From: an uncultured delta proteobacterium
GTDB taxonomy: Bacteria; Desulfobacterota; DSM-4660; Desulfatiglandales; HGW-15
Assembly (NCBI GenBank): GCA_963702565.1
Contig: CAVPDE010000001.1
Location: 6,104 to 70,103, forward strand
Direction: 5' to 3'
Length of the DNA: 64,000 nucleotides
Shown in pieces: positions 2,929 to 59,038 of the stretch (positions are counted from its first letter, which is position 1; the number at the start of each line of letters is the position of its first letter). The notes under the pieces are model-generated. The model ran no database searches. It saw only the letters and a list, made by a program, of their open reading frames with translations, and had not been told where the DNA came from. The translations under genes were made by a program, and so were the position numbers.

Positions 2929-2980
2929 TTGCAATACGTTTCCATTTAATCCATTATTCTAAACGGACGGGAGGAAAGTC

Positions 2981-4330: not shown

Positions 4331-4354
4331 CGCTTCTTCGCTTGAAAGGAGATA

Positions 4355-5023: not shown

Positions 5024-5068
5024 GCTACGTGTCGACAGAGAAGATGCAACGACCGCAACGAGGGCCCT

Positions 5069-5413: not shown

Positions 5414-5910
5414 TAAGAGGCGGCAGAAAGAGCGCTCTTCCTGAACCTCTTGGGCAGAAGCCCTCCCCCGTAGAACACGAAGATGCGGTCAAAGAAGAAC
5501 ACGTGAATCGTCATGAGCAGCCACATCATGTCCTCGCCCACCTTCCCCCAGCCCAGTTCCTCGCCCACCGAGTCGAAACACCCGCAGGAGATCGGCGCAT
5601 CGCGATAGATGTTGATGATGAGCATGACGATGAACATGATCAGCATGAGGGAGGTCACCACCGCCGCCGCGCGGGTCCTGAGCCCGATGATAAGGAACAG
5701 GCCGCACATGAATTCCACCCACGGCAGGACCAGGGAGCCTGCATTCAGGAAAAAGTAGGGGATCAGCTGGTAGGCGGCCACGGATTCGGCAAACACCGCA
5801 GGATAGGTGATCTTGTAGATGCTCGCATAGATGAACACATACCCGATGTAGACCCGGAAACCGAGGGCCAGGTATTCGCTGGTCGCAAGGCGCTTCAACA
5901 GTTCTTTCAT
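5413..5910 (-). CDS. MauE/DoxX-family integral membrane protein
   Basis: 165-aa ORF with about four hydrophobic helices and the CGCF motif typical of MauE-like proteins. There is an ATGA start/stop overlap with the upstream gene. Confidence 0.6.
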
Positions 5911-6818: not shown

Positions 6819-7041
6819 GCTGTTATCTTCCGAAGTCAGGGTCGGTTGGGACAAGAAAACGGGTCATTCACGAAAAGCTTTGGCTCCTTCTCTACTCGGC
6901 TTTCTTGGAAAAGTCAAGGTTGACGGCTTCATGAGAAATCCGCTAGGCCGTCACCCGGCAAAACCCGGGGAAGGAGCCGGCGAAAATTACCAGCCTCTGG
7001 CTGCGCAACACCGCAGATGATGCTTGATGGTGGATCAGGGC

Positions 7042-8337: not shown

Positions 8338-8417
8338 AGAAACCCCTTTCTCAGTGACGAGTGAATTGTGACAAGACAAAAAGATTGCAATCCTCACTCG
8401 TCACTTGTCACTCTCTT

Positions 8418-10898: not shown

Positions 10899-11016
10899 CA
10901 GGTCGGCGTAGCGCCGGGTGATGAGAAATCCAGAACTCTGGGCGAGCTCTTTCTTGATGAGGGTGTTTCTGGAATCCAGAAAGTCCTGGACAAGGGTGTG
11001 GGAGGACTTGCGATGA

Positions 11017-11603
<587 letters not shown>

Positions 11604-11671
11604 TTACCATGACATCTGATCTCTCAATCGCAACACCCTGTTTTATCGGGAAAACAAGTCGCGGATCCCAA

Positions 11672-11686
11672 TGGCACGCTCCTTGC
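11672..11686 (+). promoter_or_regulatory. Sigma-54 (-24/-12) promoter for amtB-glnK-glnD2
   Basis: TGGCAC-GCTCC-TTGC matches the TGGCAC-N5-TTGC consensus, about 35 nt upstream of the amtB ATG at 11722. Confidence 0.6.
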
Positions 11687-11721
11687 CATGGGAAAAGGAG
11701 ATCAACGAAAGGAGAGGACTC

Positions 11722-12942: not shown

Positions 12943-12953
12943 AAACAGCCCTT

Positions 12954-13049
12954 GAGGGACAAAGGGACAGAGGGGCAAAGCTGAAAAAACATTCTATCCT
13001 ATCTTTTTGTCCCTTTCTTTGTGCCTATGTGCCTTTGCAACTTTGTGCC
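12954..13049. repeat. Inverted arrays of 8-bp periodic words (GGGACAAA type versus TTTGTSCC type) downstream of amtB
   Basis: GGGACAAA GGGACAGA GGGGCAAA at 12956-12979. The complementary words TTTGTCCC, TTTGTGCC, TATGTGCC, TTTGCAAC, TTTGTGCC lie at 13006-13049. Confidence 0.6.
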
Positions 13050-43876: not shown

Positions 43877-44058
43877 ATCAGACATTGAGCATTCAACAGT
43901 GAGAGAGGACAGAATACAGCGTACAGAAAGCAGTAGAAAAAGCCAGTGATCAGTAATCAGTCGGAAGTGAACAGCGGGAGAAGACAGAAGACGGGAGTAA
44001 AACCAGTAAGCAGGGAACACTAATCGGAGCACGGTGAACGATCAACGGTGAACGGTTA
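43877..44058. repeat. Intergenic block of 7-8 bp periodic words (CAGTA / ACAGA / GGTGAACG types) between mlaE and mlaF
   Basis: CAGTAATCAGTCGG (43951-43964) matches CAGTATTCAGTCGG at 17946-17959. AGTAAAACCA (43996-44005) matches 17968-17977. GAAGACAGAAGAC is the complement of words at 49488-49510. Confidence 0.6.
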
Positions 44059-44832
44059 ATGATGAACAGGCAGCCGATCATTCAGGTGAAAGACCTTGTC
44101 GCGCGGTACGGAGAGGAGACGATTCTGGAAGGCGTCTCCTTTGAGGTTTACGAAGGAGAGATCTTTGTCATCCTCGGAGGAAGCGGGTGCGGCAAGAGCA
44201 CACTTCTCAAGCACTTGATCGGGCTCATCCGGCCTTATCGAGGGCAGGTCATCGTTGACGGCGAGGATATCACGCATGCGGACTCTCAGGGCTATCACCG
44301 CCTTTTGAGAAAAATCGGCATCCTCTACCAGGGCGGCGCCCTCTTCGGTTCCATGACGCTTGCCGAGAACGTCGCTCTCCCCATCATGGAATACACCGAT
44401 CTCTCCTCGGACCTCGTGTCTGCTCTCGTTCGGATGAAGCTGAACCTCGTCCAGCTGGAAGGGTATGAAGACTACCTGCCGTCTGAGATCAGCGGCGGGA
44501 TGAAAAAGCGGGCCGGCCTTGCCCGAGCCATGGCTCTCAACCCGAGAATCCTTTTCTTTGACGAGCCTTCGGCAGGACTCGATCCGGTCACTTCGGCAGG
44601 GCTGGACCGTCTTATCTTGCACTTGAACAAAAGTCTGGGAACCACCATGGTCATCGTCACCCATGAACTCCAAAGCATTCTCACCGTGGCTCAGAGGGTG
44701 ATCATGCTGGATAAAGGAACCAAGGGAATTGTCGCGGAAGGGGATCCCGTCCACCTTCGCGAGACCAGCCGCAACCCTCTGGTCTGGCGGTTTTTCAATC
44801 GCCAGCCCGAGGAGAGCGCACACCCGGCATAA
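44059..44832 (+). CDS. mlaF: ABC transporter ATP-binding protein (MlaF-like)
   Basis: Walker A GGSGCGKST, signature LSGGM-like ISGGMKKR and Walker B ILFFDEP. Confidence 0.88.
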   Translation: MMNRQPIIQVKDLVARYGEETILEGVSFEVYEGEIFVILGGSGCGKSTLLKHLIGLIRPYRGQVIVDGEDITHADSQGYHRLLRKIGILYQGGALFGSMTLAENVALPIMEYTDLSSDLVSALVRMKLNLVQLEGYEDYLPSEISGGMKKRAGLARAMALNPRILFFDEPSAGLDPVTSAGLDRLILHLNKSLGTTMVIVTHELQSILTVAQRVIMLDKGTKGIVAEGDPVHLRETSRNPLVWRFFNRQPEESAHPA

Positions 44833-44845
44833 AGGGGCATGATTC

Positions 44846-45832
44846 ATGGCTTCACAAAAAACCAAATTCGTCGTCGGCCTGTTTCTTGTTTGCGGGATCG
44901 GGATCGCCCTTCTCGCTTTCATCTGGCTCGGGATGTCCCGATATTTCGAGAAAGGCCGGTTCTACGTCACCTACTTCAACGAATCCGTGCAAGGCCTGGA
45001 CAAGGATTCCCCGGTCAAGTACAGGGGCGTGTCCGTGGGCCGCGTCCACAGCATCAGCGTGGCTCCGGACTCCAAGCTGGTGAAGGTGGTTCTGAAGATC
45101 GAAACCGTAATGGGGCTCGATACGAACATGGTCGCCCAGTTGAGGTCCGTGGGCATCACCGGAAGCGTTTTCATCGAGCTCGATCAAAAAAAGCGGGACG
45201 AGCCGGACCGCTCGCCTCCGCTCAGTTTCCCTTCCGAATACCCCATTGTCGCCTCCAAGCCGTCGGAGCTCGGGGAGATCCTGCGCGGCATTGACGACAT
45301 TCTGAACAAGATCAAGGCCGTCGACCTGGAAGGGATCTCTGCGAAAGTGAAGTCCAACCTGGATACCATTGAAACGGCGGTTCAGGAGGCCAATGTGAAA
45401 GGACTGTCCAGAAAGGTCGAGCGATCTCTGGATCAGCTCAATCAAATCCTGGACGGGCAGCAGTGGGACAAGATCATGGCCTCCACCCAGGAAACAATTC
45501 GGGCAGCCAATGAATTCTTCGTGAGGGGCAATGCCACCTTGACTCATGCGGAAAACGCTTTCGCCCAAGCCCGGGGGATCATCGCCGACAAAGAGCAAGC
45601 CATCCGGGAGGCTCTGGAAAACATCAACAAGGTCATTGAGAAGAGCGCTTCTTTAACCACGGGAGCGGATGAAACCTTCTCCCACATGAGACAAAACCTC
45701 CTGGTGTCGGCGCAGAACCTTGAAAGGGCCAGTGAAAACCTCAACCGGTTCCTGGAGGTTCTGGCCGATCAACCCTCCCAGCTCGTTTTCGGAGAGCCCT
45801 TGCCTCGCCGTGAGATGGACCCTGAATTCTGA
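44846..45832 (+). CDS. mlaD: MCE/MlaD-family substrate-binding protein
   Basis: N-terminal TM anchor plus MCE domain (VQGLDKDSPVKYRGVSVGRV), with a long helical C-terminus. Confidence 0.8.
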   Translation: MASQKTKFVVGLFLVCGIGIALLAFIWLGMSRYFEKGRFYVTYFNESVQGLDKDSPVKYRGVSVGRVHSISVAPDSKLVKVVLKIETVMGLDTNMVAQLRSVGITGSVFIELDQKKRDEPDRSPPLSFPSEYPIVASKPSELGEILRGIDDILNKIKAVDLEGISAKVKSNLDTIETAVQEANVKGLSRKVERSLDQLNQILDGQQWDKIMASTQETIRAANEFFVRGNATLTHAENAFAQARGIIADKEQAIREALENINKVIEKSASLTTGADETFSHMRQNLLVSAQNLERASENLNRFLEVLADQPSQLVFGEPLPRREMDPEF

Positions 45833-45847
45833 TCAAGGAGATTGACC

Positions 45848-46465
45848 ATGACCCGCACACAACGATCGCTCATCTTCCTGGTTCTCCTGTCCTGCTGCGC
45901 CTGTTCAAGCCTGAAACAGCCCGGCCAGAAGGTCGACTATTTCACCCTGGAATATGAGCCGCCCCAGGTTCAGGGGCTCACGGCGCTGCCTTTCGTCCTG
46001 AGGATAGAACGATTCAGTGTGTCACCCCTTTACAACACCCATCAGATCATCTACCGGGATCGGTCGTTCAGACGAGAAGCCTACCCTTACGAGAAGTGGC
46101 GTGCCGCTCCGGGCGAACTGGTCACCTATTACCTTTCGAGAGATTTCAAGCACGCCGGCCTGTTCAAAGCCGTGGCTCCCTACGAGAGCAGGGTCGAGCC
46201 TTCCCTGATCATGGAAGGATCTGTGGATGAGTTTTTCGAATGGGACTCGGAGGACGGATGGAAAGCCGTGCTGACCGTGAGCACGGTTCTTTTGTCTCAC
46301 CCTCAGCCCGACCTGAGCAAACGGATTATTTTCCAGAAGACTTTTCATGCGGTGAAGCCTTGCAAGAAGAGAAACGTCGCAAGCCTTTCCGAAGCCATGA
46401 GCGAGGCGATGGCCGAGGTTTCCGCTCAAGTGATCCGGGCGACCTATCAGCATCTGGTGAAGTGA
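45848..46465 (+). CDS. ABC-transport auxiliary lipoprotein (DUF330/PqiC-like)
   Basis: Lipobox LLSCCAC. Its position directly after the MCE gene is typical for this family. The ATG at 45848 follows aggag. Confidence 0.6.
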   Translation: MTRTQRSLIFLVLLSCCACSSLKQPGQKVDYFTLEYEPPQVQGLTALPFVLRIERFSVSPLYNTHQIIYRDRSFRREAYPYEKWRAAPGELVTYYLSRDFKHAGLFKAVAPYESRVEPSLIMEGSVDEFFEWDSEDGWKAVLTVSTVLLSHPQPDLSKRIIFQKTFHAVKPCKKRNVASLSEAMSEAMAEVSAQVIRATYQHLVK

Positions 46466-46505
46466 AGCAAAGAGCATGGAGCTAAGAGCGAGGAGATCAC
46501 CCTTC

Positions 46506-47387
46506 ATGGAACCGGAACTTATAGAGATCAAGCAGGACCGGCCGGGGTTTGATCGCTTTATCGGATCGTGGTTGTGTCCGTTCGACAAAATCATGGTCAT
46601 CGATGTCGGACCTTCCCGATCCTTGCCGAAACTCATCGCCGCCCTCACCGCCAGGGGTGTTCACCGAGTGGACTATGTTCTCCTCACCCACATCCACATG
46701 GATCACGCAGGAGGACTGGCGGAATTCCTCGATCACTTTCCCATGGCTCGCGCCGTGTGCCACAGCAAAGCGATCTCTCACCTCCTGGACCCCTCCAAGC
46801 TCTGGCTGGGGAGTCAAAAGACCCTGGGAGATCTGGCGGAGGCCTATGGCCCCATCAAGCCGGTCAAAAGAGAACGCCTCATTCCGCACACCGAAGCGCA
46901 GGCCGAAGGCATCGACCTCATCGAGACTCCCGGCCATGCGGTTCACCATCTCAGTTACATTGTCAGGGGAAACCTCTTTGCAGGCGAGGCGGGCGGCATT
47001 TACGTCAGAGGGGAAGGCTGGGAGTATCTGCGACCCGCGACCCCTCCTGTCTTCTTTCTGAAGCAATTTCTTGAAAGCATGGATCGCCTCCTGAACGCGA
47101 GGGATCTGACCATGTGCTACGCGCATTTCGGCAGAGCGGACAGTTCGCACCACATGCTACAAAGAGCACGGGCGCAACTCCTTTTCTGGGAGCGGATCAT
47201 CCGGGAAGAGATGGCCAAGGGCGATCCGCTTCTGATGGAACGATGCATGGCTAAGCTCCTGGGTGAAGACCAGGAGCTCACCGCTTTTCAAGCCATGTCT
47301 TCTGCGGACCAAGACAGAGAAAGATTCTTCATGGGAAATTCGATCAACGGTTACCTGGGGTTTCTCCAGGAAAACCCTAATCCATGA
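46506..47387 (+). CDS. MBL-fold metallo-hydrolase
   Basis: HIHMDHAGG motif plus downstream TPGHAVHH. The ATG at 46506 has an upstream aggag. Confidence 0.75.
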   Translation: MEPELIEIKQDRPGFDRFIGSWLCPFDKIMVIDVGPSRSLPKLIAALTARGVHRVDYVLLTHIHMDHAGGLAEFLDHFPMARAVCHSKAISHLLDPSKLWLGSQKTLGDLAEAYGPIKPVKRERLIPHTEAQAEGIDLIETPGHAVHHLSYIVRGNLFAGEAGGIYVRGEGWEYLRPATPPVFFLKQFLESMDRLLNARDLTMCYAHFGRADSSHHMLQRARAQLLFWERIIREEMAKGDPLLMERCMAKLLGEDQELTAFQAMSSADQDRERFFMGNSINGYLGFLQENPNP

Positions 47388-47439
47388 GAAGCCTCCCCGT
47401 CATCACCGGGCCCCAGGCGCCGCCTGGCGGTTCCGGGGA

Positions 47440-48123
47440 TCACGCCACTTTCTGCAGAAGGCCTCTTGCCCGGTCCCGCAGCTTTCTGACGGTTCTTTCC
47501 GCCAAGCTTCGGTTCTGATACCGGCGCAGGTCTTCAGGGTCTACGGCCTCCGGGCAGTGCCTGAGCTGGAGCTTGATGACCGCGTGGCGGTCATCGACGA
47601 GAAACCTTCTGTAAATCAGACGGGCCGGGAAAAATCTGAACTCCCGTTCCAGAATAGCCGCAGACCAGTCGATAAGGTAAGGGCTTCCGTCTTCCCCCAC
47701 CAGGACATTGGCCGCTCTCTTGAGATCGCAGTGACACAGGCCTCTTCGGTGAACCCGCTCTACAAGGTCGCGCAAGGTTTCAAAGAATTGGACCGGAAGT
47801 CTCTCCGTCTTCTCAAGTCCTTCGATGCTCCTGCCCTGGATTTCCTCAAGGACCAGCGCAAGGCCTCCCACAACGCCATAAAGCGCAGGCACGCCCTTCA
47901 GTCCCTTGAGCCTCCGGTAGGCTTTCTTTTCTCTCCAGATCAGGAAGCGGCCGATGAGATTTCTGAACACCCGGCCATTGACGCTGAAATCCTTGACGAC
48001 CGCTCGGGCATCGCCTTCTTCGATCCGGTACAGAGCCGGCCTTGTGGAAGACGGCTTCCGGAGGGTGGCAGTTTTGTTTTCTGTAAGATCCAGGAGTGTT
48101 AGGGACTCAACCTTGAGATTCAT
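47440..48123 (-). CDS. Protein-kinase-like fold protein (Kdo/WaaP/RIO-type)
   Basis: Catalytic-loop-like CHCDLKRAANVLV and YLIDWSAA. Confidence 0.6.
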   Translation of the reverse strand: MNLKVESLTLLDLTENKTATLRKPSSTRPALYRIEEGDARAVVKDFSVNGRVFRNLIGRFLIWREKKAYRRLKGLKGVPALYGVVGGLALVLEEIQGRSIEGLEKTERLPVQFFETLRDLVERVHRRGLCHCDLKRAANVLVGEDGSPYLIDWSAAILEREFRFFPARLIYRRFLVDDRHAVIKLQLRHCPEAVDPEDLRRYQNRSLAERTVRKLRDRARGLLQKVA

Positions 48124-48787
48124 TCTTGAAGGCCTGCGACTTCTCCTTTACCCTTTCCTGCAACCACCGACACCAGTTTCCCAACCCCTCTCCGGTCTTG
48201 CAGGAGATCTGAAAGATGACCAGGTCCGGATTGATGTTCAAGGAGTCCTTCATGATCTTCTCCACGCTGCAATCCACATAGGGGAGGAGATCGATCTTGT
48301 TGATCAGGAGCACCTTGGACTCGTGGAACATGAGAGGGTACTTGGACGGCTTGTCATCCCCTTCCGCAACGCTCAGAATCATCACCTTGAAGTCCTCCCC
48401 CACTTTGAATTCCGCGGGGCAGACCAGGTTTCCGACGTTCTCGACCACCAGAAGATCCAATCGGTTGAAATCGAACTCAGGAAAAGTCTCCCGGATCATG
48501 TTCCCGTCCAGGTGGCATGCCCCTCCCGTGTTGATCTGCACCGCGGGAACGCCCTTTCGGGCAATCCTTTCTGCATCGCTCGTGGACTGAATGTCTCCTT
48601 CGATCACACCGATGCGAAGGTCCTTTTTCAGGGCATCAATGGTTTTTTCCAGGAGGCTCGTTTTTCCGGCACCCGGGGAGCTCATGAGATTGATGACCAG
48701 AAGATGATGCTGCTGAAACAGCGCCTTGTTCTGTTCAGCGATCCGCTCGTTCGCTTCCAGGATATTCCTCACTACAGAAACTTTCAT
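48107..48787 (-). CDS. hypB: Hydrogenase nickel-incorporation GTPase HypB
   Basis: P-loop SSPGAGKTSLLEK, CH motif GGACHLD, ENVGNLVCP and NKIDLL. The ATG at 48787 follows ggaggg, and the Arg-rich extension to 48925 is judged non-coding. Confidence 0.88.
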   Translation of the reverse strand: MKVSVVRNILEANERIAEQNKALFQQHHLLVINLMSSPGAGKTSLLEKTIDALKKDLRIGVIEGDIQSTSDAERIARKGVPAVQINTGGACHLDGNMIRETFPEFDFNRLDLLVVENVGNLVCPAEFKVGEDFKVMILSVAEGDDKPSKYPLMFHESKVLLINKIDLLPYVDCSVEKIMKDSLNINPDLVIFQISCKTGEGLGNWCRWLQERVKEKSQAFKNESQG

Positions 48788-48921
48788 TAAATCCCTCCAC
48801 CAAATCGTTGACAGCTTGCCCGCCCTCCAGAGGCGAGTAACCCTCTGGCGGGTCACCGTCACTGTTGACCGCGCACCGTTTACTGATCTGACTGGCTTCT
48901 TCTTCTGTCTTCTCTCTTTTC

Positions 48922-49263
48922 TCACTCCACCTCCATCTCGACGATGGATAACTCCTGGCCTTCGATCGTTTCAATCGCTGTGCTGGCGCAGGTCGGGCAG
49001 ACAAAGACAAAGTCCTTGATATCGAAGGCCTCGTCACACTGGGCGCAGTACCCTTTGAGGGCAATCCGGTCCATCAGGAGTTTAGCCCCTTCGAGAGGAG
49101 TCCCCTGGATGATAATTTCAAAACAGAAGGACAAAGACTCCGGCACAATAGCGGACATCTCTCCGATGCTCAAACGCACAGAGCGGAGCGTCGTAGCCCC
49201 ATGCTTTGACATCTCCTCCTGGAGAATGCTGACCAGACTCTGCGCAATAGACATTTCATGCAT
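48922..49263 (-). CDS. hypA: Hydrogenase maturation nickel metallochaperone HypA
   Basis: N-terminal MHEMSIAQSL and a zinc site CAQC..CPTC. Confidence 0.9.
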   Translation of the reverse strand: MHEMSIAQSLVSILQEEMSKHGATTLRSVRLSIGEMSAIVPESLSFCFEIIIQGTPLEGAKLLMDRIALKGYCAQCDEAFDIKDFVFVCPTCASTAIETIEGQELSIVEMEVE

Positions 49264-49282
49264 ATTTAGGCACTCAACACCT

Positions 49283-49406
49283 TGGAGTAACGGAGCATTG
49301 GAGTCCTGGAGTGTTGGAGTATTGGAGTTATGGAGTGCTGCGATAACTCCTTTTTAGCGGCCTCCTTTTCATTTCTCCATTACTCCAGTACTCCAACACT
49401 CCATTC
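49283..49406. repeat. Seven direct 8-bp TGGAGTNN units followed by four inverted CTCCANNA units (long imperfect hairpin)
   Basis: TGGAGTAA CGGAGCAT TGGAGTCC TGGAGTGT TGGAGTAT TGGAGTTA TGGAGTGC (49283-49338), then CTCCATTA CTCCAGTA CTCCAACA CTCCATTC (49375-49406). The ~29-nt arms are complementary with 3 mismatches. Confidence 0.85.
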
Positions 49407-49544
49407 TTGATTTCGTCCACCTTCACGCTTTTTTTCGTGCTTTCCTTATTTCGTGTTTTCGTGGTTGCTGTTTTGCCTTTTCATCCTGTCTTCTGTCTAC
49501 TGTCTTCTGTATTCTTACAATTTTGACACTTTAGGCACTTCTTC

Positions 49545-50501
49545 TCACCCTTGCGTCAACGCCACGGTCAGGGAATTCATCTTCTGCCTGGCATCATTGA
49601 AGATGCCTGAGAGATTCAAGGAATGGTTTGCGAAAATGCTGTCCGGGTCCCCGTTGAAAACGATCAGGGGCTCGAAATGGCATCGGCCGAGAATCTCCAG
49701 GATCTTGTCCACGAGGGTCACGGAGTTCTTGTCCATGAGAACTTCGTGGAAGTCCACCCGAATCGCCCGGAAGGACTCATGCAGTGCATACGCCACACCC
49801 TGGGCGTAGTAAAAGTTGTCATCGATCTGGCGCCATGGAATATCGATGTCCACGCTTGGAGCCGGCGATGCCTTATCCTTTTGCTCCTCGATGCTTAGAG
49901 TGGATTTCATATCTCGTGGTGCATTGATCAACCGGGTGTTCACTCCGCCCATAAGGGACAGATATTGGTTGAGGAGTTCTGTCAGGTTGTCGGCCCTGGC
50001 ATAGAAATGCGACTTCCCTGCCGCGAGATTCTGGCTGTAGGTCTCCAGCTGCGTGAGGGCCGATTTCCATTTGCTTTCCGCAGAAGGGAACCACCACTTG
50101 AAGGGGTCATTGGACAGGTTCGTGAAAGCGGCTTCCGCGCTCGGATCCAGCCGGTCTGTGGTTCGCATGCGAGAGAGGTTGTCCCTCACCACCCTCACAT
50201 TGTAGCGGACCACCTCGAGCACACCCAACTGAAAATTGGGCATGTTGTCCAGAAAAGCCGTGGGCCAGAACAGATCGTTGGGCAGCCAGTTGTCAGCCAT
50301 CTCCTTGACCAGGATCTCATTGACCTTGATGAAGTGAGCTCCCTTGACCTTCTTGTCCAGCCCCTCTAAGGTTTGATACTGGGGCTTTCTGGAGTTGATC
50401 ACCATGACCACCACACAGAAAACGACAAGGAGGAGGAGCACCAAAACTCCGATGCGGCCGCGTCCTCTCATGTGAGATTCATCCTGTTTCATTTCTTGCA
50501 T
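49545..50501 (-). CDS. DUF2333-family membrane-anchored protein
   Basis: 318-aa ORF with one N-terminal TM helix and a family-like pattern (WLPNDLFWP, FYARADNL). Confidence 0.6.
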   Translation of the reverse strand: MQEMKQDESHMRGRGRIGVLVLLLLVVFCVVVMVINSRKPQYQTLEGLDKKVKGAHFIKVNEILVKEMADNWLPNDLFWPTAFLDNMPNFQLGVLEVVRYNVRVVRDNLSRMRTTDRLDPSAEAAFTNLSNDPFKWWFPSAESKWKSALTQLETYSQNLAAGKSHFYARADNLTELLNQYLSLMGGVNTRLINAPRDMKSTLSIEEQKDKASPAPSVDIDIPWRQIDDNFYYAQGVAYALHESFRAIRVDFHEVLMDKNSVTLVDKILEILGRCHFEPLIVFNGDPDSIFANHSLNLSGIFNDARQKMNSLTVALTQG

Positions 50502-50700
50502 TTCTCATCTCCTTCGGCTTTCGTTCAAAAAAGAGGGGGATCTCCTGCCGGTGCAAGGATCGTCGATGCAATCATACGGGCAAGCTCAAAGCATTGTCAA
50601 CCCGAGATTCCGCAGACTTACGGCCTGAAAAAGATTGACACCACCCCCTCTTTATCCTAGTTTTGATGGCTGGCCTTCTCATTTCATCGGAGGTTTGAAA

Positions 50701-51186
50701 ATGGCTGAGAATCTTCTGAAAGGCAAAACCGTTCTGATCGTGGATGATGAGCGTGACATCCTTGAAACTCTCGAAGATCTGCTTCCCATGTGCGAGGTGG
50801 TGAAAGCTTCTACCTTTGAAGAGGGCAAGCTGGCGCTGGAAACCCAGGCTTTGGACATAGCGGTTCTGGATATCATGGGCGTGGATGGCTACAAGCTGCT
50901 CGATATTGCACGAAATAGAAAAGTGGTCCCTGTGATGCTCACCGCTCACGCTTTGAGCCCTGACCACACGATCAGTTCCTACAGGAGGGGAGCCGCCCTC
51001 TATGTGCCTAAGGACAAGATTGCAAACATCCCAGAGTATCTCAATGACGTGTTGCAGGCGATCAAGGCAGGGAAAAGCACCTGGTGGCGTTGGCTTGATA
51101 AATTCGAGTCCTATTACAACAAGAAATTCGAGGCGAAATGGAAGGACAAGGACGAGGAATTCTGGCGTTCTTTCCCTTACACTTGA
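50701..51186 (+). CDS. Single-domain response regulator (receiver) with a short Trp/Lys-rich tail
   Basis: KTVLIVDDERDIL..LDIAVLDIMGVDGY..PVMLTAHA. The ATG at 50701 follows ggaggtttgaaa. Confidence 0.8.
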   Translation: MAENLLKGKTVLIVDDERDILETLEDLLPMCEVVKASTFEEGKLALETQALDIAVLDIMGVDGYKLLDIARNRKVVPVMLTAHALSPDHTISSYRRGAALYVPKDKIANIPEYLNDVLQAIKAGKSTWWRWLDKFESYYNKKFEAKWKDKDEEFWRSFPYT

Positions 51187-52075
51187 GCCTCTGCTCCTTT
51201 CCGATCTTCAGACCGCTCGATTAGGCCAGGCCCCGAAAAAGGCTTTTTTTGAATTTCTTTAGATATTTCAACTATTCTCTTGCTTCCCCTAATGTTGTGT
51301 TCTAGGTTTCCTTGCGAAGGGCTCAACCTTCCTAGGGCTATCCCAAGACAAAGAGATCTGTTGTCGATATGCGCCATCCTTACCGAGCCACAACGAATTA
51401 CTTGGCCCTCTTGATCGGATTCCTCGGGATCGCCGCCTTGATCGTTCTGCTGATGCTCTGAACTCGTCCTCAAAGCCTCGCCCTGTTCTGTTCGGAGGCC
51501 ATCCTAGCTTCTCTCAAATAGACTTCTAATACCGGCCCTAACTGCATAGTAGACTGTGCAAAGGCGCACAATTCTAAGTGCATTCTTAAGGCTGCATGTT
51601 TGATGTTATGGGCAAGCGTTTGCATTCCCTCCGCTTCTCATGAGACACAACTCCAGCATCCCCTTAGGGAAAAAGGGTTGGTAGTTTCTTACCCATGTTT
51701 GCTCCAACACGCTGCACGTGCTGGCGTGTAAATTGCAGATTATTTGGATTAAACCTTTCGCGTAACCTACTGAGAGAGCTAAGAGAAGAAATTCTTTCGG
51801 CAAGAACAGCGTAGCTTCCAACCGTCAAAAAAACCTCAAGCGCTTTCGAATTTCTTTAAAAGGTAGAACGCCCTTTGGGTGGTGCTCGTATTGAATTTGC
51901 TTTGAGCGGTTTAGTCTATTGAAGCCTCCTGCACTACCGGAGGACCATGACGGCTCACAATGAAAGATCGTCGGCCGACGGGCCAGTGAGGACCGAAAAG
52001 TGGAGAACCGCAAGGGACTGGTTTCCGGAAAGCGACAATTAGATCTTTAATTTCACTGGAAAAGGAGGATTCATC

Positions 52076-52912
52076 ATGGCGACAGGAATGGCATTGACAC
52101 TTGGACTTAATTCGGTGAATCCGAAGCATTACGGAGGCTGGTCTGGAGAGCTGAGTGCCTGCGAGGCGGATGCTGAGGATATGGCCAGCATCGCCAAAGG
52201 GAATAAATTTAAAGTGACCATCCTAATGACCAAAGCGGCAACTCGTGCACGGATGGTGGCCGAAATCACAAAGGCAGCGCGTACGCTGAAATCCGGGGAC
52301 ATCTTCATGCTGAGTTATTCGGGGCACGGGGGCCAGCTGCCGGATATCAACGACGACGAGCCCGATGCAGAAGACGAGACATGGTGCCTCTATGACGGGG
52401 AATTTGTGGACGATGAACTCTATGTGCTGTGGAGGAAATTCGCTCCGGGGGTCCGGATCTTGATGTTCTCCGACAGTTGCCACAGCGGCACGGTTGCCAA
52501 ACTCGCCTATTACCAAGGGACCGTAAGCCTACGAGCTGGGGCCGTCGGCCCGAAGGAAGTGAAATACCGGGCCATGCCGCCCGATGTGGCCCTCCGCACC
52601 TACCGGAAGAACAAAGCCTTTTACGACAGGATTTTGAAAGCAAAAGTCCCCAAAGAAAAGCAGCCGACCGTCAAAGCGAGTATCCTGCTCATCTCAGGCT
52701 GCCAGGACAACCAGCTTTCGTCCGATGGGAATTTCAACGGGCTCTTTACGGCTCAACTCCTCAAGGTATGGAAGAACGGGTCCTTCAAAGGGAACTACAA
52801 AACCTTCTACAAGGAGATCCTCAAGCGGATGCCTCCCGACCAAACACCGAACTACTTCTGGGTAGGAGCCCCCAATCCCAAGTTCGAAAGCCAGAGGCCC
52901 TTCACGGTTTAA
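52076..52912 (+). CDS. Stand-alone caspase-like (peptidase C14) protease
   Basis: Catalytic His context FMLSYSGHGGQ and catalytic Cys context MFSDSCHSG. A strong SD aaggagg precedes the ATG. Confidence 0.8.
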   Translation: MATGMALTLGLNSVNPKHYGGWSGELSACEADAEDMASIAKGNKFKVTILMTKAATRARMVAEITKAARTLKSGDIFMLSYSGHGGQLPDINDDEPDAEDETWCLYDGEFVDDELYVLWRKFAPGVRILMFSDSCHSGTVAKLAYYQGTVSLRAGAVGPKEVKYRAMPPDVALRTYRKNKAFYDRILKAKVPKEKQPTVKASILLISGCQDNQLSSDGNFNGLFTAQLLKVWKNGSFKGNYKTFYKEILKRMPPDQTPNYFWVGAPNPKFESQRPFTV

Positions 52913-52966
52913 ACGGATTTCCGGGTCCGACGCGTTGGCCATGAGCAGAGAGAAGGAGGATGAGCA

Positions 52967-55066
52967 ATGGGCGTCACACTGAGAATCCGGTTCAACGGGC
53001 GCAAGAAAGATCTTAGCCTTTCTTGGGTGCCTGTTGTTTTTGAGCTTAAGCGGGTTGGTTCCAGAAAGCCTCTGCGCTTTGTCGTGAAGAATTTGGGCCG
53101 CGACGTCAAAGATGAAAAAGACCGGAGGATGAGTTACTTCAAAATCTCTAACCTAGCCGCAGGCCGTTACACCCTGAGCATCCTGGAATTCCACACGGGC
53201 CACCCCATCGTTCGAGGAAAGCGCCTAGAGCTGAAGGGAAAGGAGGTGGAGTTCGGGCTGGTGAAGGACTACCGGGCAGCCAAACAACCCAATACCTTCG
53301 GCATGGACCTCGTGGCCGATGCCCCCTACCGGGTCGAAGGCTCCTACCCCTACCTCCCGGTTGTGGTATTCATCCAGGATGTGAAGCCTGGCGAGATCAA
53401 GGTCAGTTCCATCGATTTTTTCGATTATCCCTCAGCCGAGGAATTCGATCCCAAGAAACCATTGCCCCGCGATGTGATCTACCGGGTCCTAGACATGGAT
53501 GGAAATCCGGTGGAAGAGAATGGACGGCCTGCCTTGTTGAAGCTTGACCCGGGCGAGAAATGTGAAACGGTCAGCACCGATCCGTGGTACCGGATCATCC
53601 TCCTCCATAAAGACCGGCTCCCGGTCTACCAGGGGGACTATTGGGGATACAAGAAAGCCCGTTTCCTGCAGTACCTGGTGAACATCCGTTTTCGCAGGTT
53701 CCTATACGACAGCAAGCAGTTTGTGCTGCGCACCCGGGTCCCGGACTGCGATCTTCCGAAGGTTGCGGACTGGTATTACGGGGATACCCACTATCATTCG
53801 GAATACACCCGGAATCCCTTTGAGTACGGAGGGCCCCTTTACATGACCGCCGAGGTAGCAAAAGCTATCGGCCTTTCTTGGGTCACGGTGACCGATCACT
53901 CCTACTGCCTTAGCCATCCAAAGACTCCGGCTGAGATGCAGCTTGGGAACCGGTGGCAGTCCTACCAGCAGGCGGTGAAGAGGACCAATGACTTGTACGA
54001 GGGTGTCCTCTTTGTGGGCGCCGAGGAGGTCACTGTCCGTCATGGCTTCTACGGGCTGCACATGCTCTCTTTCGGCAATCCATTCATAGAAGACCATCAC
54101 CCGGTGGGGTTTGGGTCTCTGAGGATGAAGACGGTGCTCGAAAGGATAAGAAAGAATACCGAAGCTGACCGGGGTTTCATTTATGCCGCCCACCCCTCCT
54201 GTTCTGGTTATGTCTGGGAAGAAGAGAACTACCGTCTGGCTTGTGATTCACGGTATGACAAGATCTTCCTGGGGCTTCAGCTTTTCAACGAGAAGATCCT
54301 CTACACACAAACCACCCAGTCCTCCATGGACCGGTACTTTCTGGATCCCTTTGCCCTGCTCGGCGAAGCCGATCGGCAGGCCCGCTGGTCCAAGGAGCTG
54401 GATGAAGGGGTGCGCAAGCACTGGGTGGATGGGCTCCTGATCCCGTCCCTGCAGGAATGGAAGGAGAAAGGAACCCTGCGGAAGTTCTTCATCCTGGGCG
54501 GCTCCGACGCCCATATGGATTTCAACTACGCTTTCCGACCCCACATGGCCTTCCTCATCTATTACCTTAACGACAATGCCTTCGGCAAGGTGCGCACCGC
54601 GGCTTACCTGCCCGAAAGCAACGGGCGGGCACTGACTGAGGAAAATCTTTACCGGGCTTTTCGGAACGGAAAAGCTTTGGCAACCGATGGGCCCGTGGCT
54701 TTTTTCACGCTCCGTATAATGAACAGCGGGAAAACCTATCGACTGGGAGATACCGTGCCGCTTCAGGCGGGAGAGGCTTTGGAGTTGACCATAGATTGGA
54801 AGAGCACTGCTGAGTTCGGTCCGGTTGAGAAGATCGACCTTTATCTCGGCACAACCAAGGGCGAGAAGGATATTACCGATCAGATACGTTTTCCCCGAAG
54901 CCGAAAGAAAGGGTATGGCCTCGAAGGGTCTATCAAGCAGGCCCTTCCTAAATGGGAAGCGATGCCCTGTTATCTGCGCCTGGAAGCCGCTTCTTGCATT
55001 GACCCGAAAACCGGCGAAGCTCTATTCCGCTGCGTCACTAATCCGATTTGGATCCTTGAGGCATAA
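52967..55066 (+). CDS. Large protein with N-terminal beta-sandwich-like region and PHP (polymerase/histidinol-phosphatase) metal-hydrolase domain
   Basis: PHP-type motifs in order: GDTHYHS, VTVTDHSY, GAEEVTV, LHMLSFG, YAAHP, GGSDAHMD. The SD gaaggagga precedes the ATG. Confidence 0.65.
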   Translation: MGVTLRIRFNGRKKDLSLSWVPVVFELKRVGSRKPLRFVVKNLGRDVKDEKDRRMSYFKISNLAAGRYTLSILEFHTGHPIVRGKRLELKGKEVEFGLVKDYRAAKQPNTFGMDLVADAPYRVEGSYPYLPVVVFIQDVKPGEIKVSSIDFFDYPSAEEFDPKKPLPRDVIYRVLDMDGNPVEENGRPALLKLDPGEKCETVSTDPWYRIILLHKDRLPVYQGDYWGYKKARFLQYLVNIRFRRFLYDSKQFVLRTRVPDCDLPKVADWYYGDTHYHSEYTRNPFEYGGPLYMTAEVAKAIGLSWVTVTDHSYCLSHPKTPAEMQLGNRWQSYQQAVKRTNDLYEGVLFVGAEEVTVRHGFYGLHMLSFGNPFIEDHHPVGFGSLRMKTVLERIRKNTEADRGFIYAAHPSCSGYVWEEENYRLACDSRYDKIFLGLQLFNEKILYTQTTQSSMDRYFLDPFALLGEADRQARWSKELDEGVRKHWVDGLLIPSLQEWKEKGTLRKFFILGGSDAHMDFNYAFRPHMAFLIYYLNDNAFGKVRTAAYLPESNGRALTEENLYRAFRNGKALATDGPVAFFTLRIMNSGKTYRLGDTVPLQAGEALELTIDWKSTAEFGPVEKIDLYLGTTKGEKDITDQIRFPRSRKKGYGLEGSIKQALPKWEAMPCYLRLEAASCIDPKTGEALFRCVTNPIWILEA

Positions 55067-55363
55067 AAGGGGCCAGAAATGGGATGCGGGTTGAAAGGAA
55101 TGGGTGCCCGCACCATATCCATTGACCAGGCCGCTTGCAGCCTCTAAACCTCTATGATAGAAATGAGAAAAACGCTGTCGGTTGCGTTTCCGGTGACCGA
55201 GCGAAACGAATCGGCATTAGCACCATCCTCATCCCCCCGTTTTCGGTTTTTTGGGGCCTGAACGTTTATGCTCTTCCCGAGAATTCATCAGATTTTTGTT
55301 CGGGCGGCCCAGCGTTTTGGTGATTTTCGGGTCTTTCTATTCCATCAAATCGGGAGGTTGATT

Positions 55364-55690
55364 ATGGCAGACTATTTGAAAGCAAGTGAAGCTTTGGTGG
55401 CCATGCCCTTGCCTGAAATGATCAAGGGTTTGGGTTTTGCGGTCGCCGCCGCAAACAGGGAACTCTCAGCCCAAGATGCAGGAAACGGTCATGTTCTTAC
55501 GGTCCACTCCGCGGTCATCGAGATCAACGTCGCCATCTCGGTCAATACTGCGGAAGAGTTCAAGGTGGGAGGGTCCCTGGGGATTAATGTTTTCAGCCTC
55601 AACGCCTCTTACGCCAAATCATTCAACTTCAAAGAGGAAGCCTCAAGCAAGATCCGTCTGGAGCTGAGCGTCAAACCCAAATCGCCCTAA
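55364..55690 (+). CDS. Small protein, paralogue 1 of a three-member tandem family (trypco2-like pattern, unverified)
   Basis: The ATG at 55364 follows gggagg. It shares three blocks with the next two ORFs: PLPEMIKGLGFAVAAANRELS, AVIEINVAISV and SSKIRLELSVKP. Confidence 0.6.
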   Translation: MADYLKASEALVAMPLPEMIKGLGFAVAAANRELSAQDAGNGHVLTVHSAVIEINVAISVNTAEEFKVGGSLGINVFSLNASYAKSFNFKEEASSKIRLELSVKPKSP

Positions 55691-55714
55691 GGCGAAATAG
55701 AAGAGGATTCTGCC

Positions 55715-56515
55715 ATGGTTGAGAAAAAGACGGCCAGTGGGACTGAGGCAACGGTTCGCCTCAGCCGGTTCCGTGGAGCGAAAGGGCTTGTCACACCGAG
55801 GGTGCTCAGGGAGACGGAACAGCCGGTCACCCTTGAAGAGATGCTGACCGCTTTCCAGAAAAGCCTGGGCCGCGCAAACCGGAGCAGCTATGAGGCAAGC
55901 CGCAGCGAAGCAGAGTTTCTTCTCGGCATTCGCGCGCTCTACGTTATTGAAGGTTTGAACGTCACGCTCAGGGTCGGTGTCAGAGCAGCATCCTTTGAAG
56001 GCTCAAAGGATAAAAGGGTTATTGTCGACTTCGATGCACCGGAGAAGGAGCGGTCCGAGGTCCAGTTCCGGGTCCAGTCCAAGCCGCTCGAAGCGGCCAA
56101 GGCGAACGAACTCCTGCTCGCGGACGCAGATCCTCTTGGGAACAATCGCCCGCGATTTCAACTCATCGCCACATTGATCGGAGCCCCCTCCGAAAAACCC
56201 CCTCTTCCACCGCGACCGCTCAGGGACCAGACCCTGCATTTTAAGATTGTGGGTGGGGACAGCGGAACAATGGATGTGGTTACTCTGCGCACCAACAAGC
56301 TCGGGCAGGTCAACCTTACGATCGATGCAGCCCACAACACGCTTGAGAGCAGCGGTTGTAGAGGAACTCTCAATAAGGTAGACCTGATTCAGGAGAACGA
56401 CGACTTCTTCGTTTTCGTGACGGGCGAGGACGCTTCCCTTTCTTCCCCTGTTCTGCACTTCAGTATTGACCGGAGCAAAGAGGTGAAACCCTCTGGAAAA
56501 ATGAAAAGGAGATGA
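55715..56515 (+). CDS. Paralogue 2 of the small-protein family with an extra ~140-aa beta-rich C-terminal domain
   Basis: Blocks VTLEEMLTAFQKSLGRANRSS, LYVIEGLNVTLRVGV and RSEVQFRVQSKP, then LHFKIVGGDSGTMDVVTLRTNKLGQVNLTI. Confidence 0.6.
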   Translation: MVEKKTASGTEATVRLSRFRGAKGLVTPRVLRETEQPVTLEEMLTAFQKSLGRANRSSYEASRSEAEFLLGIRALYVIEGLNVTLRVGVRAASFEGSKDKRVIVDFDAPEKERSEVQFRVQSKPLEAAKANELLLADADPLGNNRPRFQLIATLIGAPSEKPPLPPRPLRDQTLHFKIVGGDSGTMDVVTLRTNKLGQVNLTIDAAHNTLESSGCRGTLNKVDLIQENDDFFVFVTGEDASLSSPVLHFSIDRSKEVKPSGKMKRR

Positions 56516-56521
56516 GGCGCA

Positions 56522-56857
56522 ATGTCCAACGGTGATCTCTTAGATGTCCGAGTTCCCATGCCCAGCGAGAGCGGGGCAAAGGTTGAGACGGAATTGTCCC
56601 TTACAGACCTCCTCCAGGAAATGACAAGGGCCTGCACACAGTCCGCCAAGCAGTTGAACGACCAGATGCAGCCCCCCCAATGGCCCGAGGAGGTCCCCTA
56701 CGTCTACACGATACCCCAAATAAGTCTGGAACTTCGTCTTCAGCTCAGCCAAAAGGAAGGAAAGATCAAGAGCCTGTTCGGATCGACCACTGAGACCAGG
56801 TCGTTAAGCACCATCAAATTGGACTTGGTGGCGGTCCCGCGCAACATCCCAAAATAG
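56522..56857 (+). CDS. Small protein, paralogue 3 of the tandem family
   Basis: Blocks LSLTDLLQEMTRACTQSAKQLN, VYTIPQISLELRLQL and LSTIKLDLVAVP. Confidence 0.6.
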   Translation: MSNGDLLDVRVPMPSESGAKVETELSLTDLLQEMTRACTQSAKQLNDQMQPPQWPEEVPYVYTIPQISLELRLQLSQKEGKIKSLFGSTTETRSLSTIKLDLVAVPRNIPK

Positions 56858-57066
56858 ATTTTTCACTCAGCTGTGCATAACCGGTTAACTGAACTCAGCC
56901 GTTCTGAAATAGGCCATGCATGAGCGGACATCCTGCACTCTGGAACCGGACAAATCCTCAAACATCTCTGCGCCTTATTTTATCTGGTCGGCACGATCCT
57001 GTCTTGACAAAAGAGACCGGTTCTTTACGAACGATTTAACTGCAGATCGAAGAAGTGAGGAGTCAG

Positions 57067-57378
57067 ATGATAATCGACATGCACTTGCATGTGGTCGGAA
57101 GGGGAAAGGATATCGATCAAGTGGACGACCAGGTGTTCTTTTATCCGGAAGACAACAATACGCTTCTCACGAGAGTTCTCTACAGGCTCGTGGAGAAGTA
57201 TCTTGGAAAGGCCGGCGCGGACTTCGACCAGAGCGGCACGATCGACACCGATGAGTACTCTCCACTGCAAAGTGCTTTCGATTCCCACCTGTCTCCTTCA
57301 TCTGCGGCAACAATCATGCCAAAAAACTGTCACAAACCCGCACCGGTTTTCGGGTGGGAGGCAAATGAATTCCCTTGA
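57067..57378 (+). pseudogene. Probable 5' fragment of an amidohydrolase-type metal hydrolase
   Basis: MIIDMHLHVVGRG is a typical amidohydrolase N-terminus with the SD gtgaggag, but the ORF ends after 103 aa with a low-complexity tail. Confidence 0.35.
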
Positions 57379-57652
57379 CTTAAAGGGCTCTTTTTGTAAT
57401 GTATTCCTGAAACCCACCGGAGTAACGCATCATCGTGTCCAACATACATGAGGAGGTTGCTCCCATGAAAGATGAAAAGGTCCTCAAAATGTGCCAGTGC
57501 CACTCCTGATGGAACGATGCCGTTCTATTGGGAGTCACAGTAATCTGCCGGGCTAACAAAGTCTACCGATCAGGAAGCATTGCCTCATCTGCAGAGGGAG
57601 ATTTCCTCCTTGTTCTCTCTGGGTGCGGGTATTTTCACAACAGAGGTGGGAG

Positions 57653-59038
57653 ATGCGATTGAAGCTTCTTGCCATATCCGACACCCATCTTGGCGAGGAA
57701 ACCTCTGTGCTCACTTTTCCTCAGGGACGGTGGCATCTTTGGCAACAGCTTCGACGCTTCTTTGGAGGAGGGGAAGGCCCTGAAGAAAGATTCCAGGTGA
57801 ACGAGTTGATTCTACTTGGGGACATTCCGGACCGGACCCTCTCCTCCACTTCCCAGATCATTACCCACACAAATGCCTTTACCTGCATGCTTGGAAGTGT
57901 TGCCGAAATAAGAAAAGGCGTGTACGTCCCAGGGAATCACGACCACACGCTCTGGACCAATTACAGACGTGTTCGATACGGTGAAAACCACCTTTACGGT
58001 ATCACCGCTCGAGAAGGTGAAGAGATCATCAAGAATGGGAATCCCTGCGCGCCCAACCTGCTGAATACTGAAATCATGTCAACCTTCTTCGGATATCCGT
58101 GTGGGTCACCGTGGAGGGAGTGGGTAAAACCAGGGAACCGGCCGCCCGCATTCGATTTCTCAGTCGCGAATCCTCTTTATGTTACGCATACAAATAGTAG
58201 AATTTATGCTTTCACCCATGGAGCGCATTTCGCGCCGGCAGTCACGTGTCCCAAGTGGGCAAAAAGACTGGGTGACTACCTGCAACTGGATCTTCTGTTT
58301 GGCGGCATCGAGATCGAATCAGATTGTGATGTGAACCAAGCCCGTGACCTGAGGAGCCTTGAGCTGATCACCGCCCCTTTCATGGACTCCCTCTGGCCAA
58401 GCTCAAAGAATTGCCCCACGTCAACGTCGGACGAACTTTGGTATGTTTTGTGCAGATTGAGCCATAGATTTCGAAACAGACGACCTCACCCCCAGGACAC
58501 ACAGCGCTTCAGTTGGGAGATGTTGCAAGGCGTCAGCGACAAAAGGATAAAGCGACTGACACCTGCCAACGCCCAGGTCCACCCTTCCATTCAAAGATGG
58601 CAAAGACACTTTCGCGACCATATGCTCCGCTGCCTGGAAGATTACAGGGATGACAATAACATAGACCACAAGAATCTCACTTTTGTCTACGGGGATACAC
58701 ACGCGGGCGGGTGGGGAGAGATCCGCAACTGTTCTGGCTGGGATATCCGCCTTTACAATTGCGGAGGTTGGGTTGTCGATAAATTCAAGGATCATCCGGC
58801 CTGTCACCTCTTTGCCGTGGATACCGACGGTGAAGAATACTTGCTCGACGTCTCGTTTAAAGACAGATGCGTTGACGAAGAATTCTTGCTAGCTTTGGCG
58901 TCCGCGGACGTGGAAAATCGTGGACACGAGATGCAATTCTTCTTGGCGCCTCTCTTCAACCTCTCGAAGCTCTTGAGGAGAAGAGCAAGGTCCCGGATGA
59001 AGTGCCACAATCCGGTTTGTCATCCCAATCGAAGTTAG
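57653..59038 (+). CDS. Calcineurin-like metallophosphoesterase with long C-terminal extension
   Basis: Motifs LLAISDTHLG, LLGDIPDR and VPGNHDH. The ATG at 57653 follows gaggtggga. Confidence 0.7.
   Translation: MRLKLLAISDTHLGEETSVLTFPQGRWHLWQQLRRFFGGGEGPEERFQVNELILLGDIPDRTLSSTSQIITHTNAFTCMLGSVAEIRKGVYVPGNHDHTLWTNYRRVRYGENHLYGITAREGEEIIKNGNPCAPNLLNTEIMSTFFGYPCGSPWREWVKPGNRPPAFDFSVANPLYVTHTNSRIYAFTHGAHFAPAVTCPKWAKRLGDYLQLDLLFGGIEIESDCDVNQARDLRSLELITAPFMDSLWPSSKNCPTSTSDELWYVLCRLSHRFRNRRPHPQDTQRFSWEMLQGVSDKRIKRLTPANAQVHPSIQRWQRHFRDHMLRCLEDYRDDNNIDHKNLTFVYGDTHAGGWGEIRNCSGWDIRLYNCGGWVVDKFKDHPACHLFAVDTDGEEYLLDVSFKDRCVDEEFLLALASADVENRGHEMQFFLAPLFNLSKLLRRRARSRMKCHNPVCHPNRS

Follow-up and report, generated by a model that had tools for sequence, protein, structure and literature searches.

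A caspase–PHP hydrolase pair and a trio of Trypco2/Pepco-like genes as two separable, putative conflict cassettes in an uncultured delta proteobacterium

Do five adjacent genes running in the same direction form one bacterial conflict system, or do they belong to separate systems that lie next to each other? The question was raised by positions 52076–56857 of a 64,000-nucleotide (nt) stretch of contig CAVPDE010000001.1 from an uncultured delta proteobacterium (hereafter the window). A sequence-only reading had interpreted these genes as a candidate novel conflict or defence module composed of a stand-alone caspase, a PHP-domain protein in the place of the usual NTPase, and three small paralogous proteins resembling Trypco2. 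All five open reading frames (ORFs) were found on the plus strand within this interval, with a Shine–Dalgarno (SD)-like sequence upstream of each start, as that reading had described. Their unity did not hold. According to the sequence comparisons presented below, the interval consists of two separable conflict-type cassettes placed side by side where a Desulfobacteraceae-like chromosome is variable: cassette A (~51524–55053), with the caspase and PHP genes, and cassette B (~55253–56862), with the three small genes (the trio, genes 1 to 3). The whole interpretation that we favour, with a confidence only slightly better than even, sees in cassette A a module of a protease with a latent hydrolase and in cassette B a heteromeric membrane pore of the Pepco type.

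The two cassettes were separated by comparison with related loci. Locus L016 is collinear with the window over positions 44001–51480 (hypB, hypA, DUF2333 and response regulator genes; 88.6% nt identity), lacks positions 51481–55252 and with them the caspase and PHP genes, and resumes at 55253–56862 with the trio at 96% nt identity. Locus L024 shares with the window only the sequence from 55242 onward, and the trio was found in still other contexts in L013–15. The L001 locus shares window positions 51524–55053, inclusive of the 550-nt leader, in a different context. The five genes came together only in the window and in two copies 98–99% identical to it (L022 and L023). The proposal of a single five-gene module, which failed this co-occurrence test, was rejected because the trio of L016 has neither caspase nor PHP gene, because caspase and PHP genes occur without the trio in L001, L002, L004 and L005, and because none of the other 60 trio loci carries a homologue of either. 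The idea that the PHP enzyme takes the place of an NTPase found no support either, the PHP protein behaving as a conserved partner of the protease and not of the small proteins. The higher identity of the trio (window 55253–56862 against 9541–11148 of L016) than of the common backbone suggests that the trio was exchanged recently and independently of the chromosome. A repeat search revealed no convincing target-site duplication or terminal inverted repeats at the cassette borders.

A one-system explanation, in which the caspase would activate the Trypco2/Pepco-like trio and the PHP protein would act as a second effector or regulator, is in our estimation unlikely. It draws on the adjacency and common orientation of the five genes in the window, L022 and L023, on the activation of Pepco-type proteins by a neighbouring protease, on the definition of Trypco2 by its peptidase linkage (PMC7159879), and on the basic residues that follow the last conserved strand in all three trio proteins (KPK, KP and VPR). 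These arguments have to be set against the confinement of the combination to one near-clonal lineage and against the separate cassette boundaries, each cassette having its own conserved 5' region and a 297-nt gap (55067–55363), unmentioned in the earlier account, lying between the PHP gene and the trio. The trio is present in 60 other loci devoid of caspase and PHP genes, the caspase and PHP genes are present in at least seven other contexts devoid of a Trypco2-like ORF, and the products of genes 1 and 3 have no long removable tail. The window caspase might also act on the trio, but co-occurrence lends this no support.

The first gene of cassette A encodes, as proposed, a 278-residue C14 caspase with an intact catalytic dyad and no regulatory domain. 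Its product matched Pfam Peptidase_C14 (PF00656) with 90.3 bits (cut-off 21.4; E=1.9e-25) and contains both His–Cys dyad motifs, SGHGG and DSCHSG, and over nearly its full length (residues 2–278 against 2–277; E=8e-125) it is an orthologue of GSU0716 from Geobacter sulfurreducens (PDB 3BIJ), a bacterial metacaspase-like, structural-genomics protein in whose aligned sequence both motifs are unchanged. No description of the function or of a partner of GSU0716 was found in the literature searched.

The scan with the PHP protein over one genome per species yielded eight loci. A gene for a C14 or CHAT protease adjoined the PHP gene in 8 contexts, representing at least four phylum-level lineages among the named records, and the records with cassette A were assigned to Desulfobacteraceae, 'delta proteobacterium' metagenome-assembled genomes (MAGs), Thermoleophilia and Thermodesulfobacteriota. 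The protease gene lies on the same strand as the PHP gene and, where it is directly upstream, is separated from it by 22–106 nt. Caspase and PHP genes are neighbours in the window, in L001 (whose products show 97% and 86% identity, respectively, to those of the window) and in L002; a gene for a caspase–TIR fusion adjoins the PHP gene in L005, and a CHAT gene adjoins it in L006, the P0072 locus and L072. In L004 the PHP gene is followed by genes for caspase, CHAT, caspase–DUF7379 and TPR–CHAT proteins. The L003 locus of Latescibacterota, which ends inside the PHP gene, has in common with L001 downstream genes for a metzincin, a C25-like membrane protein and a CHAT–SIR2 protein, and also encodes nSTAND1. 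Metallophosphoesterases are also encoded in L072 and L001. Across the PHP clade the neighbouring genes mostly encode caspase, CHAT, C25-like, metzincin, SIR2, TIR, WD40–caspase and nSTAND1 proteins; L007, a distant PHP relative, has no protease neighbour. No caspase/CHAT–PHP system was described in PADLOC or in the literature searched.

Some details of these loci may be added. In L002 the caspase and PHP genes are separated by an inserted gene for a cysteine peptidase of the papain family (C1; 8895–9686). A multi-protease island is common to a Desulfobacteraceae MAG (L001, 11082–17596) and a Latescibacterota MAG (L003, 2065–8054); besides the PHP hydrolase it contains an astacin-like metzincin with a PPC domain, a CHAT–SIR2 protein, nSTAND1 (in L003) and the C25-like protein, which is 690–715 residues long and has a C-terminal membrane segment. 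The ~550-nt non-coding leader of cassette A (51524–52075) is conserved between the window and L001 (81–88% nt identity) despite the different genomic context, and its L001 copy carries an insertion of ~150 nt. The Rfam search of the leader gave no match and its predicted RNA folding was unremarkable (z=-1.29); Rfam likewise returned nothing for the two long non-coding stretches, and no significant RNA structure was predicted at the junction 55067–55252.

The attribution of a complete set of PHP motifs to the 699-residue product of the second gene was borne out. The full metal-ligand set (HxH, DH, E, H, DxH and D) is complete, and both the motifs GDxHYHS, TDHS, AEE, AAHP, GSDAHMD and TDGP and the ligands themselves (H275, H277, D310, H311, E353/354, H409, D514, H516 and D574) show no variation among seven homologues (31–85% identity). 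Among 1.84 billion clusters, 824 representative relatives of the catalytic core were counted at E<=1e-3 and 71 at E<=1e-30; very few of them cover the N-terminal, non-catalytic region of ~260 residues. No match was found in Pfam, including the Pfam PHP family at E<0.1, and no relatives were detected among IMG/VR viral contigs or PLSDB plasmids. In the family alignment a linker of variable length precedes an invariant Q107-x-N-T. The residue in front of Q107 is K or R ([KR]-Q) in the C14-linked members, and the CHAT-linked members have (I/L)D(T/A)DDPxLQ before Q107-x-N-T. This difference fits, weakly, a processing site that would track the type of protease, the CHAT-linked examples being interrelated and the sample small. 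That only protease-linked members possess the first ~100 residues was considered and dropped, as the alignment with P0074 and P0077 was too loose.

From the gene content, homologies, cassette boundaries and co-occurrence, which were all observed directly, we infer every biochemical step of the model that follows. Cassette A would be a two-gene operon for a stand-alone caspase-like protease followed by its partner, a PHP-fold metal hydrolase. The caspase would process the PHP protein, most likely in the variable linker just before Q107-x-N-T and so after the N-terminal domain, and the processed protein would release a metal-dependent phosphoesterase or esterase activity, leading to cell arrest or death. 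This logic is modelled by analogy on the modules that combine a protease with an MBL, alpha/beta-hydrolase or MPE effector.

The PHP protein might instead be a sensor or regulator of the caspase that, for example, binds or hydrolyses a nucleotide signal, with the caspase then cleaving other cellular targets; we regard this as quite unlikely. Nucleotides and phosphoesters are common substrates of PHP enzymes, the caspase stands alone with no sensor domain, the ~260 N-terminal residues of the PHP protein could accommodate such a role, and the caspase of L005 is fused to TIR, a signal-generating domain. However, no ligand-binding domain was identified in the PHP protein, the invariant catalytic metal ligands fit an enzyme and are silent on its role, and the variation of the linker motif with protease type, seen in a small and phylogenetically clustered sample, is a better fit for a substrate.

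Cassette B is represented much more widely. Trio genes were found in 63 loci, in 43 of which all three are present; the incomplete loci all end at a contig end with the sole exception of L049, and wherever a locus leaves room for it, gene 3 comes after gene 2, again except in L049. The genes either overlap by 4 nt (start/stop; L009, L013, L018 and L019) or lie <25 nt apart, which argues for one operon. Pairwise BLASTP among the three small proteins of the window gave nothing significant. When the three families were drawn from the 63 loci and their cleaned profiles compared by hhalign, the families of genes 1 and 3 aligned with a score of 47.8 (probability 93.5%, E=2e-7) over 88 collinear columns, the gene 1 family and the N-half of gene 2 with a score of 36.8 (E=6e-5), and the families of genes 3 and 2 with a score of 22.4, against scores of 7–15 for eleven reversed or column-shuffled controls per pair. 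The best cross-family hmmsearch value for gene 3 was E=9e-9. The three consensus sequences share a layout of an amphipathic helix (ASExLxAxPLPxMIxGLGLAVAxAN, VTLEExLxAFQKSLARA and LLxxxxxAxTxAA), an amphipathic strand (AEIELNVAISV, LYVIDGLxxxLxAGV and YxxPxMxxSxRLxLS) and, after a loop, a last strand with P-[KR] at its end.

Trypco2 (PF19631), named in Kaur et al. 2020 (PMC7159879), matched eight of the 17 members of the gene 1 family at E<0.1, and one of them, P0035, exceeded the gathering score of 24.2 with 27.6 bits; altogether, 35 homologues of gene 1 were found. The N-half of the gene 2 orthologue in L019 also matched this model (E=0.028), and genes 2 and 3 are tied to it through the profile–profile comparison. 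The predicted paralogy and the resemblance to Trypco2 are supported at the family level, solidly for genes 1 and 3 and moderately for the N-domain of gene 2. Among the closest known systems is SsPepco of Streptomyces subrutilus, which occurs with an Avs4–trypsin and was demonstrated experimentally to be a protease-gated beta-barrel pore (bioRxiv 10.1101/2025.11.14.688446). It forms 9–10-mer beta-barrels resistant to sodium dodecyl sulfate and becomes membrane-toxic once the adjacent protease cuts its charged, Pro-rich C-terminal tail (residues 85–117) after Ile97 (same source). The SsPepco sequence, taken from the supplement of that work, matched Trypco2 over residues 4–84 with 65.6 bits. The trio is linked to SsPepco through this shared Pfam model, the direct match of the trio-family profiles to it being non-significant. 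Small proteins of ~110 residues, in which amphipathic beta strands come after an amphipathic helix at the N-terminus, are common to both, as is an occurrence in conflict-type neighbourhoods, sometimes beside a trypsin or caspase. A candidate equivalence between Ile97–Arg98 of gene 1 and the SsPepco cleavage site was rejected as a coincidence of numbering; by the Trypco2 domain coordinates the residue lies within the last strand.

The trio also differs from Pepco. It consists of three diverged paralogues that always go together, one of them with a variable C-terminal extension of 130–200 residues; its two small proteins lack the ~33-residue cleavable tail of SsPepco; and it mostly has no adjacent protease, its typical neighbours being peptidoglycan hydrolases, lipases and TIR proteins. 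The gene 2 family ranges in length from 216 to ~330 residues, and its C-half is less conserved than its N-domain both among distant members (23% versus 42% identity) and among close ones (61–71% versus 84–94%). No universal partner of the trio was found across the loci. Counted by Pfam over 80 non-redundant flanking ORFs, in a qualitative survey, the recurrent neighbours were Tle1-like lipase (4), Amidohydro_2 (4), patatin (3), TIR_2 (2) and CHAP (2), as well as PG_binding_1, PG_binding_3, GH19, GH108 and Amidase_2. By-eye inspection of the neighbouring peptidoglycan hydrolases and lipases showed no obvious N-terminal signal peptide. In L019 the trio is flanked by TIR, nSTAND1 and GH108–PG_binding–TPR-S–trypsin genes on one side, and by TPR-S and patatin genes on the other.

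The L019 region as a whole (1539–13024) has the appearance of a complete conflict locus, with TIR_2, nSTAND1–PASTA, GH108–PG_binding_3–TPR-S–Trypsin_2, trio, TPR-S and patatin genes, and it is bordered by transposase fragments. In L013 (3978–4826), as in L014 and L015, a protein of 275–282 residues with no Pfam match is encoded ~350 nt upstream of the trio; it occupies the position that the caspase and PHP genes have in the window and shows no similarity to the caspase.

In the interpretation that we favour, cassette B would be a self-contained, tight operon in which two minimal subunits join one subunit with a variable C-domain to form a hetero-oligomeric beta-barrel, with permeabilisation of the inner membrane as its effect. 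The C-half of gene 2, which evolves fast, would be the regulatory or trigger-sensing part that gates the pore. In the other genomes the pore would let signal-less peptidoglycan hydrolases and phospholipases reach the envelope, resulting in suicidal lysis. The furthest-reaching joint version of both models is unlikely as a whole: the PHP-fold hydrolase would represent a new class of caspase-/CHAT-activated zymogen effector, and the trio would be a protease-independent, three-subunit Pepco-type pore, gated by the hypervariable C-domain of its middle subunit, for holin-like release of leaderless peptidoglycan hydrolases and phospholipases onto the cell's own envelope in abortive infection.

Several results weigh against the two-cassette model of effectors. 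For cassette A, the PHP protein scored 64.5 bits against the NCBIfam CehA/McbA metallohydrolase model NF038032, under the cut-off of 80, and sequence and profile searches of the PDB with this protein returned no relative. P0077, which is fairly closely related to the PHP protein, lies beside a DpnII restriction–modification system and lacks a protease gene next to it. The PADLOC check suggested for the locus, run with the v2 models that include gasdermin, ppl and CHAT/caspase systems, recovered the caspase alone, through the generic 'caspase' model (E=5e-8), and nothing for the PHP protein or the three small proteins. For cassette B, gene 1 of the window itself matched Trypco2 at 14.8 bits (E=0.035; residues 23–102 of 108, that is, full-length), below the gathering score, and the trio-family hidden Markov models did not match SsPepco directly at a significant level in hmmsearch. 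AlphaFold2 predictions on the alignments of the 108- and 266-residue proteins were of low confidence (pLDDT, the predicted local distance difference test, of 45.8 and 29.9, respectively). The products of genes 1 and 3 end 5–12 residues after the domain, and gene 2 alone extends past it. A protease adjoins the trio only in the window, L012 and L019; most of the ~30 non-redundant contexts have none, so the trio may not be activated by the route known for Pepco. Ordinary metabolic or transport genes are frequent among the neighbours of the trio, and the enrichment in effectors is qualitative only.

The suspected conflict or defence character of the locus was supported by the neighbours of both gene sets in other genomes, and the patchy presence, the contrast in identity, the fast-evolving C-half and the conflict-gene neighbours are typical of conflict genes. 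It is very unlikely that one or both cassettes serve other ends, the caspase and PHP proteins as a housekeeping or catabolic pair (a CehA-like esterase with its maturation protease) and the trio as a benign structural module of the envelope or stress response: CehA and McbA do hydrolyse carbamate pesticides, neither the PHP protein nor the trio is covered by a PADLOC model, trio neighbours are often metabolic or transport genes (MacB/FtsX, MFS and ETF-QO) and housekeeping genes flank the window interval, but the neighbours of the PHP clade are dominated by the protease, SIR2, TIR and nSTAND1 genes listed above, the L019 trio sits inside a TIR–nSTAND1–trypsin–patatin locus, presence among close relatives is patchy with the trio at 96% against the backbone at 88% identity, and the C-half of the middle protein evolves fast. 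A phage-structural identity was ruled out, as PHROGs had no match for the five proteins or for three middle-gene homologues, and no gas-vesicle or other structural family was found for the window proteins in Pfam. At the sensitivity used, gene 1 relatives were not found in IMG/VR or PLSDB.

Each cassette is a variation on a known type, protease–effector modules in one case and Trypco2/Pepco effectors in the other, and not a category of its own; no description of either as such was found in the sources that could be searched. The protease partners on record include MBL, alpha/beta-hydrolase, Pepco, EACC1, MPE, CATASP, gasdermin and others (bioRxiv 10.1101/2025.11.14.688446; PMC7159879). Cassette A resembles these modules in that a caspase-family gene lies directly beside a same-strand hydrolase gene, an arrangement conserved across distant taxa, and in its occurrence in protease-rich islands with STAND, TIR or SIR2 genes. 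It differs in the PHP fold of the partner, which is not among the ten modules of bioRxiv 10.1101/2025.11.14.688446, and in the absence of a sensor fused to the window protease; cleavage of the PHP protein is predicted from a candidate linker. PHP-fold metal hydrolases, as in cassette A, serve phage defence in ppl and in Ophion OpnB (bioRxiv 10.1101/2025.09.30.679545), but their partners there are an ATPase, or rSAM and PRTase proteins, and no protease. Kaur et al. 2020 describe NTP-dependent conflict systems (STAND or vWA–MoxR with EADs) in which an NTPase core belongs to the locus. No STAND or MoxR NTPase and no vWA/VMAP core was found among the genes flanking the cassettes (response regulator, DUF2333, MPE-like and DUF362 proteins), which agrees with the earlier statement that no STAND, vWA or AAA partner is adjacent; nSTAND1 is encoded in the relatives L003 and L019. 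Phage holin–endolysin cassettes offer an analogy only, drawn from gene neighbourhoods, in placing a putative small permeabilising component beside signal-less peptidoglycan hydrolases. The trio proteins have no transmembrane helices and no homology to holins, and no trio was found in IMG/VR viral contigs or PHROGs.

Death effectors gated by proteases are gaining a major place in bacterial immunity and have parallels in caspase/gasdermin systems. With a conserved caspase/CHAT–PHP pair, the protease-linked effectors would gain a new enzyme fold, and the long-orphan GSU0716-type bacterial caspases a testable partner. The trio suggests that Pepco-type barrels can be heteromeric and controlled without a dedicated protease, and its possible cooperation with envelope-degrading enzymes would tie pore-forming immunity to a lysis-like execution step. 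With two and three genes, respectively, both cassettes are compact.

The features of the interval are collected in Table 1.

Table 1. Coordinates in the window of the genes and non-coding segments of cassettes A and B (aa, amino acids)
Feature	Position	Strand	Basis
Conserved non-coding leader, left end of cassette A	51524..52075	+	81-88% nt vs L001; absent in syntenic L016
Stand-alone caspase-like C14, GSU0716-type protease, 278 aa	52076..52912	+	PF00656, 3BIJ, SGHGG/DSCHSG, PADLOC 'caspase'
PHP-superfamily CehA/McbA-like metal-dependent hydrolase, 699 aa	52967..55066	+	NF038032 below cut-off, invariant ligands, caspase/CHAT adjacency
Inter-cassette junction	55067..55252	.	blastn breakpoints; sequence found in none of L001, L016 and L024
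5' region of trio cassette, presumed promoter and in-frame upstream extension	55253..55363	+	L016 homology begins at 55253, L024 homology at 55242
Trio gene 1, 108 aa, Trypco2/Pepco-like	55364..55690	+	Trypco2 residues 23-102, E=0.035; 35 homologues
Trio gene 2, 266 aa: Trypco2-like N-domain (~37-140), Pro-rich linker, fast-evolving C-half	55715..56515	+	hhalign, L019 orthologue
Trio gene 3, 111 aa, Trypco2-like paralogue of gene 1	56522..56857	+	hhalign, cross-family hmmsearch

Among the SD-like sequences, GAAAAGGAGGAT precedes the start of the caspase gene and GAGAAGGAGGAT that of the PHP gene (repeat search, repeat D7), and GGGAGG precedes the start of the 108-residue gene 1. The frame of gene 1 is also open from position 55268, which gives an alternative product of 140 residues. 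In most members of the gene 1 family the frame is open for 30–50 codons upstream of the conserved, SD-preceded Met, and some members lack this extension, which shows a loosely conserved basic/hydrophobic pattern (e.g., RIHQIFVRAAQRFG and RRLIERIFGAA). The upstream open frame at 55268–55363 could specify a second, longer isoform (dual start) or could be a conserved 5' element.

The region downstream of the trio (56863–59038 of the window) also varies between relatives. In the window it encodes a 471-residue protein with faint similarity to metallophosphoesterase/PdeM (E=0.0012), followed by a 1164-residue DUF362 membrane protein. In L016 (11149–16720) this place is taken by genes for a different Metallophos protein of 446 residues and a 1122-residue DZR/guanylate cyclase/AAA_16/TPR protein.

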